From contig JBAYHW010000005.1 of the NCBI GenBank assembly GCA_041665925.1, forward strand, positions 13,819 to 77,818: a stretch of DNA of 64,000 nt, read 5' to 3'. This DNA is from Minisyncoccota bacterium. Its GTDB lineage: Bacteria; Patescibacteriota; Minisyncoccia; Phycocordibacterales; UBA9973. This document shows positions 21,066 to 35,709 of the stretch, piece by piece (within the stretch, counting starts at the first letter, position 1; each line of letters begins with the position of its first letter). A program made the translations under genes and the position numbers. The notes below the pieces were generated by a model. The model did no database searches. It worked only from the letters and a program-made list of their open reading frames with translations, and was not told the origin of the DNA.

Positions 21066-21321
21066 ACTTTTATTTGGATGAAAGGGGGTGATACAATGCT
21101 GAGTGACCGGAGACACTGGCGAGAGGCTCAGAGTCGAGACGACCAAAATAAATGGTCTCGACTCCCTGGGGCCACGGTGTCCGTCGCTTCTCTCCTTCCC
21201 GACGGGGAGGGAGCGAAGACCGAGAATTGTCTCCCCGACGATTCTCCCTCCGATGAACAGTCGGAGGAAAGCTAGGGGACCAGGAGGCTGTCGCATCTGC
21301 GGCCGCCTCCTCTTCTTTTTT
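21066..21321 (+). ncRNA. GC-rich, highly structured transcription unit of about 255 nt with its own -10 box and intrinsic terminator. Candidate novel structured ncRNA. It alternatively encodes an acidic 59-aa ORF (21096-21275) preceded by the SD AAAGGGGGTGAT.
   Basis: TATAAT at 21055-21060 with an upstream TG. Perfect 10-bp hairpin GAGTCGAGAC/GTCTCGACTC. A 13-bp helix CTCCTTCCC-GACG-GGGAGGGAG. A CCTCCGA/TCGGAGG helix. Terminator AGGAGGC...GCCTCCT plus T-run at 21282-21321. About 60% GC against about 40% in the flanks. Confidence 0.45.
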
Positions 21322-21394
21322 ACCCAATTTTACAACACAAAATTCGCTAAAAATCACTAGCAAAATATATAGGTTTTTGGTATAATATAGCTAT

Positions 21395-23476
21395 ATGGCA
21401 AAAGACGAAAAGGACAAAAAAGATGGCGCAAAAGGCCATCATTATGATGCCTCTGACATTTCAGTCCTAGAGGGCCTAGAGCCCGTCAGGAGACGTCCAG
21501 GTATGTATATCGGTACAACAGGGCCCGAAGGCTTGCACCACCTCGTATGGGAGATTTTTGACAATTCCCGCGACGAAGCCATGGGAGGATTTTGTAATGA
21601 TATTGAAATTGTACTTCTTCCTAAAAATCGTATTCGAGTAGCTGACAACGGCCGAGGTATTCCCGTAGACATGCACAAGAAGACGAAAGTCTCTGCACTT
21701 GAAACTGTGATGACCACCCTTCACGCTGGAGGAAAATTCGGGGGAGAAGGATATAAAGTTTCCGGAGGTTTACACGGTGTTGGTGCATCTGTCGTTAACG
21801 CACTTTCAATTTACTGCAAGGCTGAAGTCCACCGAGACGGAGGGAAGTACATGCAGGAGTATTCTCAAGGTAAGAAAAAGTCTGCCGTTAAAAAAATCGG
21901 TGCATCTAAACTCCATGGGTCTATTATTTCTTTTGAACCAGATCAAGAAATTTTCGGAGATATAAAGTTTAGCTGGGAAACTATCGTTAACCACATTCGT
22001 CAGCAAGCATACTTAGTGAAGGGGCTTAAAATTTTAATTATTGACGCACGAGAATGGGATAATTCGAAAGGCCTAGATGAATCTGATGTATTTTATTTCC
22101 GAGATCTTGGCTTAGAGCTTCCATCGGTAACTTTTTACTTTGAAGGAGGACTCATTTCTCTTGTAAAGTATTACAATAAATTTGTTAAACCAATTCAGGA
22201 GAATATTTTTTATGTTGAAAAAGAATTGGACGGAGTCGGCGTAGAAGTCGCTCTCCAATACGTGGATGATATCACCGATAGAATTTTTCCTTTTGCCAAT
22301 AATATTTTTACTCAAGAAGGAGGCACCCATGTGACTGGATTTAAAACAGCGCTCACGAGGACGCTCAATACTTACTGCAAGAAAAACGAAATGATGAAAG
22401 AGTCCGAAGGAGGATTCACCGGGGAAGACGTCTTAGAAGGTTTGACGGCTGTTATCTCTGTGAAGCTTCGTGAGATACAATTTGAAGGTCAGACTAAAGG
22501 CAAACTAGGAAGCATGGAAGCTCAGGGTGCCGTGGCCACTGTCTTCGGGGAAGCATTTGCAAACTTTTTAGAAGAGAATCCAGATGAGGCTAAATCCATC
22601 ATAAACAAGTCAATTCTAGCTCTAAAGGCACGCAAAGCCGCTAAAGCAGCGAAGGATTCCGTATTACGTAAAGGCGCACTAGAAGGCATGACTCTTCCTG
22701 GTAAGCTTGCTGATTGCCAGAGTAAAAATGCAGCAGAGTCCGAACTATTCCTCGTAGAGGGAGACTCCGCAGGAGGTTCCGCAAAGCAAGGGCGAGACAG
22801 ACGCACCCAGGCGATACTTCCACTTCGCGGAAAGATCTTAAACGTGGAGCGCGCGCGCATAGATAAGATGCTCGCTTCGAAAGAAGTGAAGTCGCTCGTC
22901 ATAGCTATGGGTACATCCATTGGAGACACTTTTGACTTAGATAAGATGCGTTACCATAAAATAATTATTGCCACAGATGCCGATGTGGACGGTTCACACA
23001 TTCGGACGCTTCTTCTAACACTCTTTTACAGATATTTTAGGCAAGTCATAGATGCTGGGTACATATACATCGCTCAGCCACCACTTTATAAAATTAAAAA
23101 AGGAAAAGAAATTTCTTATGCTTATACCGATGATGAAAAATTAAAAATTGTCGGTAAAGGCGCAGATGTGAGCGAGATACAAGATGTAGAAGTAGTAGAA
23201 GGTGAGGGTGAAGAGGAAACAGAAGAAGAAGAAAAAGAAGAAACAGCCAAAAAATCTACCAAAATTCACATCCAACGCTTCAAGGGTCTCGGAGAAATGA
23301 ACCCGGAAGAACTCTGGGAGACGACGATGGACCCTGCACATCGCGTGCTCAAGCGTGTAGATATTTCTGACGCTGAAGAAGCCAATAAAATATTCGATAT
23401 TCTTATGGGCTCCGAAGTCCCACCTCGAAAATCTTTTATCCAGTCAAACGCCAAACTCGCTGAAATAGACATATAG
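21395..23476 (+). CDS. gyrB: DNA gyrase subunit B
   Basis: GHKL ATPase motifs, Toprim EGDSAGGS, the GyrB C-terminal domain, and an acidic insertion [15 protein letters not shown]. Confidence 0.93.
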
Positions 23477-23482
23477 TTAAAC

Positions 23483-23509
23483 AAAAAATCCCCAAACGGG
23501 GATTTTTTG
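23483..23509. terminator. Bidirectional intrinsic terminator (AAAAAATCCCC-AAAC-GGGGATTTTTT) between the convergent genes gyrB and thrS
   Basis: Symmetric hairpin with A and T tracts on both sides. Confidence 0.8.
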
Positions 23510-23510
23510 T

Positions 23511-35123: not shown

Positions 35124-35152
35124 TTGACAAGCACCCCAAAATGTGCTATACT
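35124..35152 (+). promoter_or_regulatory. Near-consensus sigma70 promoter TTGACA-17 nt-TATACT
   Basis: -35 at 35124-35129 and -10 at 35147-35152, upstream of the GC-rich lipoprotein gene. Confidence 0.65.
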
Positions 35153-35209
35153 ATACCACAGAAGAGCGAGGTGGCCATTTAAGCACCTGCTCAAAAGGAG
35201 AATTGACAA

Positions 35210-35590
35210 ATGAAGAAGCTCATCGTCATCCTGGTGGCCGTGTTGGCCACCGCCTGCGCCACCACCGGCGTGAAGCTCGCGGAGCAGGCCGCTCCGCAGA
35301 CGGTTCTCTTCGCTGACGTGACCACCTGCCTCAAGGCGGCCATTGACGCAACACTGACTCCGACGGCGGCAGCGGAATTCTGTCTCGAGGCAAGACGTCT
35401 CGAAGCCGACCGCGCAAAAGCCACCGCCGAAGCAGCGGCCAAGGCGGAGGCGAACAAGCCGGCATGTGGGCTCTGCCTCATGCCGGGGACAGGATACGGA
35501 TACTACAACACGTATCCACCGCCTCCGCCGCGACCGATCGGCGGCTACACCAACACCGTCGTAGCATACACGGAACACAAGGTGAAGTAG
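35210..35590 (+). CDS. GC-rich small lipoprotein (126 aa) with lipobox LATAC, an Ala-rich helix and a C-terminal PPPPPRP/Tyr-rich tail
   Basis: SD AAAAGGAGA 8 nt upstream. Signal peptide MKKLIVILVAVLATAC. About 62% GC with high GC3. Its own promoter and terminator. Confidence 0.6.
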   Translation: MKKLIVILVAVLATACATTGVKLAEQAAPQTVLFADVTTCLKAAIDATLTPTAAAEFCLEARRLEADRAKATAEAAAKAEANKPACGLCLMPGTGYGYYNTYPPPPPRPIGGYTNTVVAYTEHKVK

Positions 35591-35622
35591 GCATCACATC
35601 GAAGGGGATGTTTTCGTCCCAA

Positions 35623-35660
35623 GGCGTCGTCGCAATCGCACGACGCCTTTTCATTTTCAT
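35623..35660 (+). terminator. Intrinsic terminator GGCGTCGT-loop-ACGACGCC followed by TTTTCATTTTCATTTTTC
   Basis: 8-bp GC stem plus a T-rich tail directly after the lipoprotein ORF. Confidence 0.7.
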
Positions 35661-35709
35661 TTTTCTATACCAACATTGACAAAATGCTAAAGTATGGTAG
35701 TTTGGAGCA

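Follow-up and report, generated by a model that had tools for sequence, protein, structure and literature searches.

Small GC-rich transcription units with strong Shine-Dalgarno sequences in variable junctions of a conserved Ca. Nomurabacteria gene block

We analyzed a 64-kb stretch of contig JBAYHW010000005.1 (hereafter the window), which derives from a genome of Ca. Nomurabacteria, an AT-rich, ultra-small bacterium belonging to the CPR (candidate phyla radiation). Within a block of AT-rich housekeeping genes, four short GC-rich islands were found: island 1 between pheT and gyrB, island 2 between thrS and rpmF, island 3 between smc and a fused carboxypeptidase gene (dacPGA), and island 4 between rnr and rpsP. 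The islands are heterogeneous, yet they may be viewed as one class, that of small accessory transcription units occupying open junctions of a rigidly syntenic core block. We propose, with a probability of about 0.45, that they represent a distinct and partly conserved class of GC-rich small accessory genes led by Shine-Dalgarno (SD) sequences. In the general plan of such a unit, a native-like AT-rich promoter region precedes a GC-rich body composed of a strong, correctly spaced SD, a small open reading frame (ORF) and a GC-rich terminator, and the predicted fold of this body is in most cases much more stable than its composition would explain. The proposal builds on the anatomy of the units, their positional conservation, the persistence of high GC and SD in orthologues, covariation in the RNA of island 1 and an insertion scar around one part of island 3 (the 3c-3d cassette).

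GC content of the whole window is 0.393, and ten flanking housekeeping genes have GC of 0.37-0.43 and third-codon-position GC (GC3) of 0.32-0.38. Scanning with 150-nt windows delimited GC-rich segments at 21058-21349 (GC 0.54), 25329-25553 (0.55), 29704-30034 (0.56), 30366-31030 (0.56) and 35131-35668 (0.59), with peaks of 0.60-0.645 in 200-nt windows. A previous note made from the letters of this DNA (the initial annotation) had described GC-rich islands amid AT-rich genes, and this description was borne out (0.54-0.59 against 0.37-0.43). The seven small ORFs it had named all exist (Table 1): an acidic protein of 59 or 65 aa in island 1; a 47-aa transmembrane (TM) peptide in island 2; an 85-aa protein (3a), a 55-aa AbrB-like protein, a basic 68-aa protein (3c) and an acidic protein of 83 or 90 aa (3d) in island 3; and a 126-aa lipoprotein in island 4. 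High GC3, which had been attributed to the islands in general, was observed for six of these ORFs (0.59-0.76), the exception being the AbrB-like gene (GC 0.44, GC3 0.48), which is nearer to native genes. No further intergenic ORF with high GC3 was detected in the 64-kb window. Periodicity of GC content among codon positions reached significance in 3a (p=1e-5), 3d (p=6e-7) and island 4 (p=4e-4). It was borderline in island 2 (p=0.045), and no significant periodicity was seen in island 1 (p=0.21) or 3c.

The GC-rich stretch of each island consists only of the ORF and its 3′-UTR with the terminator (GC 0.52-0.64; 3′-UTRs and terminators alone, 0.52-0.60). Promoter-side DNA has GC of 0.28-0.40, like native spacers, and the edges are sharp, coinciding with the ORF start and the terminator end. 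A terminator hairpin was found 3′ of each unit, and a promoter-like element, SD, ORF and terminator occur together in islands 1, 2 and 4 and in 3c-3d. The view of the islands as self-contained units holds for the terminators and for the SDs of the six GC-rich ORFs, and does not hold for 3a, which has no promoter of its own and begins 45 nt past the smc stop codon. E. coli-like consensus promoters, also reported for the set, were recovered only in island 4, where TTGACA-17-TATACT at 35124 is indeed the best match of the region (11/12); elements of the other islands are weaker or missing. Neither the island proteins nor the island DNAs are similar to one another, which speaks against the suggestion that they form a dispersed family of small genes. 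Searches of Pfam, PHROGs, NCBIfam and PADLOC returned nothing significant for island proteins beyond a weak AbrB/MazE match, and models of tRNA, tmRNA and Rfam 15 families gave no island match even at E-values up to 10; six related loci also had no Rfam match. The only known RNA genes in the window are two tRNAs, whose GC (0.56-0.59) is similar to that of the islands.

One conceivable explanation of this composition is codon-level expression control, in which rare GC-ending codons throttle or condition translation of envelope and regulatory proteins. It would fit the combination of high GC3 and native-like GC2 in 3a and 3d, the persistence of the feature in orthologues, and the nature of two products, a lipoprotein and a membrane peptide, whose targeting might benefit from slow translation. 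We consider it distinctly unlikely, given that 3′-UTRs and terminators are GC-rich as well, that island 1 is constrained as an RNA and that members of the 3d family with native GC exist.

Relatives were collected by SMC-centred searches, comprising 80 loci from species-representative genomes and 80 loci from metagenomes (designated by L numbers). Nearly all of these ~160 loci are labelled Ca. Nomurabacteria, Paceibacterota or Patescibacteria, and no relative with SMC identity above 81% was found in the genome scan or the metagenome scan. The gene order pheT-gyrB-thrS(-)-rpmF-nusB-rnc-smc-dacPGA(-)-rnr(-)-rpsP-khpA-trmD is kept in relatives; in the window, the flanking ORFs encode PheT, GyrB, ThrRS, L32, NusB-NUDIX, RNase III, SMC, a D-Ala-D-Ala carboxypeptidase-PGA_cap fusion, RNase R, S16, KhpA and TrmD. 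Lengths of the junctions vary widely across relatives (22-2539 bp for pheT-gyrB, 49-5837 bp for thrS-rpmF, 1-3626 bp for smc-dacPGA and 54-3121 bp for rnr-rpsP). Many relatives have empty slots of just 22-140 bp, with only tens of bases or a pair of divergent promoters, indicating that the islands are extra DNA in variable slots. Island 1 was found in 5-6 genomes and island 4 in 16 of 82 gaps, and islands 2, 3a, 3c and 3d were absent from the ~160 related loci.

A check for chimeric assembly, which the initial annotation had recommended, was carried out. Three contigs of ENA assembly ERZ27249449 match window positions 18511-45590 with zero mismatches, and their breaks lie inside rpmF and rnr, away from island edges; chimerism is therefore excluded. 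Island 4 was also reproduced by the Logan assembly of run SRR6484324, and homologous islands identified by sequence in other samples point in the same direction.

Variable junctions could also be recombination hotspots in which GC-biased gene conversion raises GC3, with neither foreign origin nor selection on RNA being involved. The islands do occupy the most variable junctions, divergence of the lipoprotein and of core genes is partly discordant, which suggests allele exchange, and GC excess is not always accompanied by strong folding. However, GC3 shows no gradient into the rnr end (+0.043 in carriers compared with +0.022 in non-carriers; p=0.46). Boundaries of the islands are sharp, promoter sides staying at GC of 0.28-0.40, and in gaps of equal variability, such as gyrB-thrS, accessory genes have GC below that of the genome. 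Gene conversion would leave the SDs unexplained, and, to our knowledge, a GC3 shift from ~0.35 to ~0.78 far exceeds the effects reported for this process in bacteria. The missing gradient and sharp edges in particular make this explanation very unlikely.

The very strong SDs that had been noted in the islands were confirmed: each of the six GC-rich ORFs has one, with energies of -8.9 to -15.3 kcal/mol and a spacing of 6-10 nt to the start codon. The 42 native genes of the window have a mean SD of -1.7 kcal/mol, with 76% weaker than -3, and 827 core-gene starts in relatives have a mean of -1.2, with 0.5% at or below -8.5. Strong SDs recur in homologues of island genes: orthologue values, taken from the best in-frame start within the first 30 codons and hence subject to a mild selection bias, average -8.8 kcal/mol in 14 lipoprotein orthologues; SDs of island 1 homologues are -10.7 to -11.9, and all five 3d-family genes have SDs of -9.5 to -11.9, their neighbours in L168 and L169 being SD-poor. 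More generally, GC-rich accessory ORFs in relatives have stronger SDs than accessory ORFs of native GC (-7.7 vs -3.8, p=2e-6).

The 3′ end of 16S rRNA in three relatives (L018, L053 and L095) reads GGAATAATTCAATTT. Following helix 45 the sequence is GGAAUAAUUCAAUUU, and it ends in ...CUCGUGGAAUAAUUCAAUUU; L018 and L095 are identical over the stretch read. The Rfam SSU alignment of these 16S sequences stops at position 1520 of 1533, which implies that the anti-SD tail is absent from them. This is consistent with the findings of Tsurumaki et al. 2022 (PMC9297842), in which only 48% of Parcubacteria had a detected anti-SD motif. Given a host lineage without SD use, the island units are set apart in both coding composition and translation signals. 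Bacteroidota also translate independently of SDs, with an occluded anti-SD, and their few known SD-bearing genes are housekeeping regulators such as rpsU and are not known to include GC-rich accessory genes. The present lineage shares with such SD-independent lineages (Bacteroidota and Parcubacteria lacking an anti-SD) the SD-less core genes and, in relatives, a 16S tail without CCUCC, but differs in that a minority of small genes keeps strong canonical SDs. No report of such a minority in Parcubacteria was found in the literature searched.

Island 4 encodes a protein with a lipobox signal peptide, an Ala-rich helix and a Gly/Tyr/Pro-rich tail. Its family, defined by all-versus-all comparison of gap ORFs and a two-round profile search over the distinct rnr-rpsP gaps, always adjoins rpsP, including in its sole match among 5.8 billion proteins (P0002). 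Members share a signal peptide with a lipobox, an Ala-rich helical segment and a Gly/Tyr/Asn/Ser-rich tail. Read by eye, the lipobox is MKKLIVILVAVLATAC in the window and LTGC, ATGC, VGC or FAGC in orthologues; a few members (e.g., L112, L096 and L110) have only a plain signal peptide. The promoter flank is ~80% conserved in L066 and L113. Members are 21-66% identical, compared with 68-90% for SMC and RNase R of the same genomes. GC3 of the lipoprotein gene ranges from 0.52 to 0.79 and exceeds that of the adjacent rnr by +0.12 to +0.45 in 15 of 16 members. In the L024/L034 pair, 53% of lipoprotein codons for identical residues differ, against 47-49% in rnr and smc, yet GC3 is 0.78 in both, their core genes being at 0.43-0.51. 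High GC despite core-like synonymous divergence suggests an equilibrium rather than the decaying trace of an import. Judged by these sequence features, island 4 encodes a fast-evolving, predicted surface lipoprotein that is fixed upstream of the rpsP operon.

Homologues of island 1, identified with nhmmer and a covariance model, were detected only in pheT-gyrB gaps (the window, L042, L041, L004, L034 and, weakly, L010), i.e., in 5-6 sampled species, and are likewise GC-rich. The transcript is strongly folded: against dinucleotide shuffles, the z-score of its minimum free energy is -5.5 in the window, and those of the L042 and L041 transcripts are -8.8 and -10.9. In the 3′ domain of the RNA, 86.7% of cells are paired, compared with 40-57% in slid controls, and 14 pairs are changed on both sides, compared with 1-7 in controls; the observed value was not reached in any of 500 shuffles, in an analysis of five sequences from which the structure itself was derived. 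Six covarying pairs fall in a 10-bp hairpin with the U/GCCCC loop. In the window, L042, L041, L004 and L010, an ORF of 52-66 codons begins at a conserved SD-ATG and continues almost up to the terminator; it is thus kept in 5 of 6 homologues and is not open in L034. The peptide N-terminus M-x-S-D-[RK]-R-H-W-R-E is conserved, with mostly synonymous differences between homologues in the first ten codons, and the remainder is not conserved as protein.

A promoter belonging to gyrB itself lies downstream of the island 1 terminator, so the island is a unit in its own right and does not serve as a leader. Its promoter-like element was not picked up by a consensus promoter scan; it resembles the gyrB promoter (21366-21386), with a flank alignment score of 21 (p ~0.02 vs shuffles). 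From its sequence, island 1 appears to be a conserved, covarying multi-hairpin RNA of ~230 nt with a short ORF, resembling dual-function small RNAs. With RNAIII/delta-haemolysin, SR1/SR1P and SgrS/SgrT it shares a transcription unit of its own, a terminator-defined end, a length of ~230 nt, covarying hairpins and a short ORF with protein-level conservation of its N-terminus. It differs from them in that the ORF spans nearly the whole structured body, in lacking an Rfam match and in occurring in just 5-6 sampled species. The conserved UCCCC loop and other CCUCC-like tracts are also reminiscent of the small RNAs RsaE and RoxS, whose C-rich loops pair with SD sequences. Such C-rich or CCUCC-like tracts in the island 1 RNA are CUCUCCUUCCC, UCUCCCC and CUCCCUCC, and could in principle pair with GGAGG leaders of other island genes. 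The terminator stem (21282-21316) is itself an SD/anti-SD-like duplex, AGGAGGC...GCCUCCU.

Strong folding was also observed for coding sequences (CDSs) alone. Fold z-scores against dinucleotide shuffles were -6.4 for island 1, -4.0 for island 2, -2.6 for 3a, -5.9 for 3d and -4.0 for island 4, compared with -0.08 +/- 1.07 for native coding segments; six lipoprotein orthologues gave -3.1 to -5.8. With synonymous-codon shuffles, z-scores of the well-folding island CDSs were -2.0 to -5.9 (island 2, -3.2). Two broader ideas were dropped. A conserved specific structure of the lipoprotein mRNA was not supported by the L024/L034 pairs, and 24 compensatory pairs from RNAalifold were discounted as biased; strong folding as the cause of all GC-rich accessory genes found weak support in relatives (p=0.05). 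In addition, a native-GC ORF of 145 aa in the khpA-trmD gap of L071 (19701-20138) has a fold z-score of -7.5, a misfit to the link between GC and folding.

These folds raise the question of whether the islands are simply non-coding structured RNAs, with ORFs that arise incidentally because GC-rich DNA has few stop codons. Several overlapping ORFs do occur on both strands in every island, fold z-scores are strongly negative, and island 1 combines real covariation with a lack of codon periodicity. A purely non-coding reading nevertheless fails for 3a, 3d and island 4, which display codon-position periodicity with GC1 above GC2. Conservation of the signal peptide and lipobox across the 16-member lipoprotein family, nine protein-level homologues of 3d, an SD at the right spacing before each ORF, the mainly synonymous differences in the first ten codons of island 1 and the lack of any Rfam family match are all difficult to reconcile with it, and it must be regarded as extremely improbable for the set.

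Island 3 is composite. In our reconstruction, 3c-3d is a cassette inserted at a palindromic operator-like site beside a resident AbrB-type regulator gene. Direct repeats of 33 nt bracket 3c-3d (alignment score 46 vs a null maximum of 23), and L050 carries a single copy, CAATCCCTAGGGAAATCACTAGGGATTC, between the AbrB homologue and the 3′ end of dacPGA, i.e., an empty site; together they identify 3c-3d as a true insertion into such a site. No target-site duplication common to all islands was found: only the 3c-3d repeats were significant, island 1 was marginal (p ~0.02), and flanking direct repeats at islands 2 and 4 were not significant (p = 0.31 and 0.16), with no integrase or att-like repeat seen at either of the latter. 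The AbrB-like gene matches PF04014 with E=5.6e-5 (23.4 bits, under the cut-off of 24.7) and, weakly, TIGR02609 (18.3 bits against 55.9). It is the only island-region ORF with PHROGs matches below 0.01 and has no PDB sequence match. A homologue with 73% identity occupies the same junction in L050/L143; the gene is resident and lies outside the GC anomaly.

Of the cassette genes, 3c is an orphan, with no family match and no homologue in the loci searched. For 3d, an initial large-database homology search returned only the protein itself, and a full HMMER scan revealed nine remote homologues (33-45% identity), placing it in a sporadic family of ~80 aa in CPR-like genomes. Its predicted structure, a helical bundle, reached a pLDDT of 72 in one model only, and every Foldseek match of this model to PDB had an E-value above 1. 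In L168 the 3d copy forms a sharp island, with GC of 0.61 against 0.38 for the genome, that CTAG-core repeats flank on either side; copies in L167 and L169 lack such repeats and have GC close to native. Contig L165 contains seven consecutive small genes, each of them SD-led, with two 3d paralogues among them. Two generalizations were rejected: 3c-3d as a conserved gene pair, because 3c does not lie beside 3d homologues elsewhere, and a general association of CTAG motifs with the flanks of 3d-family genes, because these motifs occur only in the two GC-rich copies (window and L168). The third GC-rich gene of the island, 3a, is also an orphan; it found only itself among 5.8 billion proteins, had no homologue in the loci searched, and its AF2 model has a pLDDT of 51. 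Its GC1/2/3 values are 0.58/0.36/0.72. The hairpin between 3a and the convergent AbrB-like gene is, from its position and sequence, a likely bidirectional terminator.

Exact inverted-repeat pairs TCCCGTTAGAA/TTCTAACGGGA occur at 30202-30277 and 33061-33127 (4 matches vs 1.1 expected), directly upstream of, and overlapping, the ATGs of the AbrB-like and dacA-PGA_cap genes. The arrangement suggests a shared operator or a leader that could sequester the start codon; the motif is nearly absent from the fetched loci of relatives.

The initial annotation had interpreted the islands as repeated acquisitions from a high-GC donor, such as the host of an episymbiont. In its strictest form, all four islands would be recent, independent and unameliorated acquisitions from an SD-using donor of this kind. 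Much of the evidence is compatible with this: GC3 of 0.6-0.76 fits a genome of ~60% GC, canonical SDs occur inside a lineage without SD use, 3c-3d has direct repeats and an empty site in L050, and islands 2, 3a, 3c and 3d are missing from the ~160 related loci. Similarly, GC-rich 3d copies with CTAG arrays (window and L168) and native-GC copies without them (L167 and L169) could represent young and old insertions, the run of seven SD-led small genes with two 3d paralogues in L165 could be a source-type element, and lipoprotein GC3 values of 0.52-0.79 look like an amelioration series. Part of the acquisition idea is supported by the variable slots, the 3c-3d scar and the foreign-looking codon GC and SDs.

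However, no donor was found. The island proteins compared with databases of 5.8 billion and 1.8 billion proteins were the lipoprotein, 3a and 3d, and none of these three has a homologue in a high-GC organism; detectable relatives of the lipoprotein and 3d occur only in CPR-like, AT-rich contexts, and none of either was found in viral (IMG/VR) contigs. GC2 of 3a and 3d (0.34-0.36) fits an AT-rich proteome and not one of 60% GC, promoter-side DNA is native and AT-rich, and islands 2 and 4 lack an integrase or att-like repeat. Islands 1 and 4 speak against recency; they are GC-rich in 5-6 and 16 other genomes and occupy the same positions with homologous 5′-UTRs, retained GC3 and SD, and, for the lipoprotein of L024/L034, core-like synonymous divergence. 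Two islands that keep their odd features at the same position in many species are thus not simply fresh imports from a GC-rich host. For related genomes, the initial annotation had named the same genes at native GC as a refuting result; the comparison gave a third outcome, the same genes at elevated GC. Recent import of all four islands is possible but, in our view, rather doubtful; islands 2 and 3 are better candidates for it than islands 1 and 4.

We therefore return to a distinct class of SD-led, GC-rich accessory genes. Taken together, SDs, codon GC and the scar of 3c-3d suggest that the class ultimately came from a gene pool that uses SDs and is richer in GC. For islands 1 and 4, persistence of these features at fixed sites despite synonymous turnover speaks for either selection or continuing site-specific supply rather than recent import from a host. 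High GC, folding and SD may be kept there by selection on the RNA, for stability or translation control, rather than being leftovers of import. Such RNA-level selection is the most concrete candidate: covariation demonstrates it for island 1, and for the lipoprotein it is no more than plausible.

Several observations weigh against this interpretation. Folding is not universal: 3c is not unusually folded (z of -1.5 with dinucleotide and -0.9 with synonymous shuffles), other GC-rich accessory ORFs in relatives differ little from those of native GC (z of -1.70 vs -0.95, p=0.05), and changed pairs in the L024/L034 lipoprotein mRNAs stay canonical in 26-31% of cases, compared with 30-46% in slid controls. 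Distribution of the lipoprotein is patchy (16/82 gaps), its divergence correlates weakly with that of core genes (rho 0.43, p=0.049), and L024 and L004 are discordant, with 84-90% core identity and 30% lipoprotein identity; lipoprotein alleles may therefore have been replaced repeatedly from an external pool. The spread of lipoprotein GC3 (0.52-0.79) could reflect stages of amelioration, and vertical descent of the gene is not proven. The mild bias in orthologue SD values should also be kept in mind, and absence of the anti-SD in the genome of the window is inferred from 16S of relatives and from its own SD-less native genes. Most intriguing of all is the occurrence of SDs where the anti-SD appears to be missing. 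Perhaps strong SDs, GC-rich codons and compact mRNA-like units persist because ribosomes lacking an anti-SD do not read these genes in the ordinary way. By analogy with T-DNA, whose genes bear signals of the host type, they might be tuned for expression in another cell, an SD-using, GC-richer host to which the nucleic acid would be delivered, or GGAGG might serve as a docking site for a dedicated regulator, such as the island 1 RNA, instead of binding ribosomes; we consider either version a long shot.

Table 1. Coordinates of island features and of one neighbouring gene in the window
Feature	Position	Strand	Remarks
Island 1 promoter-like element	21042..21060	+	Extended -10 TGTATAAT at 21053-21060
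Island 1 ORF, 59 aa, acidic	21096..21275	+	SD AAAGGGGGTG upstream, -15.3 kcal/mol
Island 1 RNA body	21100..21321	+	Successive GC-rich hairpins, one with conserved U/GCCCC loop, and intrinsic terminator
Island 2 ORF, 47-aa peptide	25345..25488	+	One hydrophobic TM-like segment; SD GAAAGGAG, -9.0 kcal/mol; GC3 0.62
Island 2 terminator	25501..25540	+	11-bp GC-rich stem and T-rich tail
3a ORF, 85 aa, orphan	29717..29974	+	45 nt past smc stop; no own promoter; SD -9.4 kcal/mol
Hairpin between 3a (+) and convergent AbrB-like gene (-)	29984..30034	.	
AbrB/MazE-like gene, 55 aa	30035..30202	-	GC 0.44; no SD (+1.3 kcal/mol)
Left direct-repeat copy	30291..30335	.	GTATATACCAATC, then three TCCCTAGGGA-type palindromes; between AbrB-like gene and 3c
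3c ORF, 68 aa, very basic	30405..30611	+	C-terminal CxxC...C motif; GC 0.64, GC3 0.72; SD -12.1 kcal/mol
3d ORF, 83 aa from GTG 30657 (90 aa from ATG 30636)	30657..30908	+	Acidic, helical; GC3 0.71-0.73; SD -13.0 kcal/mol
Three successive hairpins 3′ of 3d	30925..31051	+	Last (31018-31051) terminator-like
Right direct-repeat copy	31061..31093	.	88% identical to left copy over 33 nt
Island 4 promoter	35124..35152	+	TTGACA-17-TATACT with TG; best site in region, 11/12; flank GC 0.40
Island 4 ORF, 126-aa lipoprotein (MKKLIVILVAVLATAC...)	35210..35590	+	GC 0.64, GC3 0.76; SD -8.9 kcal/mol
Island 4 terminator	35624..35655	+	
Neighbouring accessory gene, 170 aa	35710..36222	+	Tyr/Gly/Asn-rich secreted-type protein; native GC; outside GC anomaly

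The peptide of island 2 is an orphan, with no homologue in the ~160 loci, and its ORF was never annotated as a gene in a public collection. A single hydrophobic helix, a strongly folded mRNA and a stable terminator are features it has in common with type I toxins (Hok, Fst and TisB); in contrast to these, it has no family match, neither an antisense RNA nor an antisense promoter was identified, and it is a single-copy orphan. The thrS-rpmF gap of L161 (268 nt) contains a different insert, and the same sequence opens the 1363-nt gap of L086. This insert seems to be structured: a long hairpin, AAAATCGCCCCGACAAAAA...TTTTTGTCGGGGCGA, precedes a GC-richer segment. It had no Rfam match in L161.

Other small genes were observed near the islands or in similar slots. 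The 170-aa protein encoded next to island 4 has an N-terminal signal or TM segment and a composition like that of the C-terminal tails of longer lipoprotein orthologues; it had no Pfam match and no homologue among the first 80 syntenic loci. An 85-codon ORF at 48802-49059 (+), in a 577-bp gap (48607-49184), has native GC (0.38) and an SD-like motif of -11.2 kcal/mol and may, from its sequence, be another SD-led small gene without the GC anomaly. The khpA-trmD slot is empty in the window (32 bp), and L010, L021, L058, L061 and other loci have GC-rich, SD-led small ORFs there, with zinc-ribbon-like CxxC...CxxC motifs (e.g., 111 aa in L021 and 106 aa in L061).

Within the core block itself, two unusual domain fusions have full-length matches in syntenic relatives: NusB with NUDIX (25854-26801) and Peptidase_S11, the D-Ala-D-Ala carboxypeptidase, with PGA_cap (31142-33061). 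The gyrB match extends over ~3.4 kb, compared with the usual ~2.1 kb, in L049 (1542-4913) and L063 (718-4128), a length that suggests an intein or other insertion inside the gene. A further GC-rich stretch of the window (4971-5666, GC 0.55, G-over-C skew 0.39-0.46) lies inside a 620-aa ORF (3827-5689) and is therefore intragenic, unlike the intergenic islands. Locus L081 (JAMPXW010000001.1) belongs to a metagenome-assembled genome labelled Burkholderiales; its contig is fully syntenic with the Nomurabacteria block, has GC of 0.32 and is probably mis-binned.

Comparison with known systems places the islands between established themes. Phage morons are, reportedly after Hendrix and colleagues, promoter-gene-terminator units of deviant composition between conserved phage genes. 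Like morons and genomic islets, the islands are short, self-contained units of deviant GC between syntenic genes, present or absent among relatives, and both kinds of element encode small proteins of unassigned function, often envelope proteins. Unlike morons, the islands are chromosomal in a CPR bacterium and are flanked by pheT, gyrB, thrS, rpmF, nusB, rnc, smc, rnr and rpsP; their deviance is limited to the transcribed body, the promoter side being native, and two units are positionally conserved across many species with their deviant composition kept. In PHROGs, no GC-rich island ORF had a significant match. In genomes rich in AT, GC-rich islands are also reported to mark genes for structural RNAs (Klein, Misulovin and Eddy, 2002). 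The sharp GC peaks observed here similarly coincide with strongly folding transcripts, whereas most of the islands are protein-coding as judged by periodicity, homology and signal-peptide conservation. The islands are thus a variant of the genomic-islet or moron theme, together with one new structured RNA, in an SD-less CPR lineage. The combination of GC islands with SDs was not reported in the literature searched, the only relevant paper being that on anti-SD loss in Parcubacteria (PMC9297842).

In this study, a lineage without SD use was found to hold a recognizable minority of small accessory genes with canonical SDs, GC-rich coding sequence and, mostly, strong mRNA folding. They encode, among others, a lipoprotein, a membrane peptide and small charged proteins, and at least two of the units are kept at fixed positions across species. 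CPR bacteria (Patescibacteria) make up a large and mostly uncultured share of bacterial diversity, in which interaction with hosts and initiation of translation by their reduced ribosomes are open questions. A GC island with an SD in an SD-less genome may provide a simple signature for candidate surface or interaction genes and for new structured RNAs in Parcubacteria, and it raises the testable question of which component would read an SD in cells whose ribosomes lack the anti-SD. Even if the islands merely reflect recurrent gene import, the signature would still mark a flexible gene pool and its insertion sites. If these genes are in fact expressed in another cell, or if their SDs are docking sites for a regulator, they would constitute a second, separately addressed channel of gene expression in CPR bacteria.

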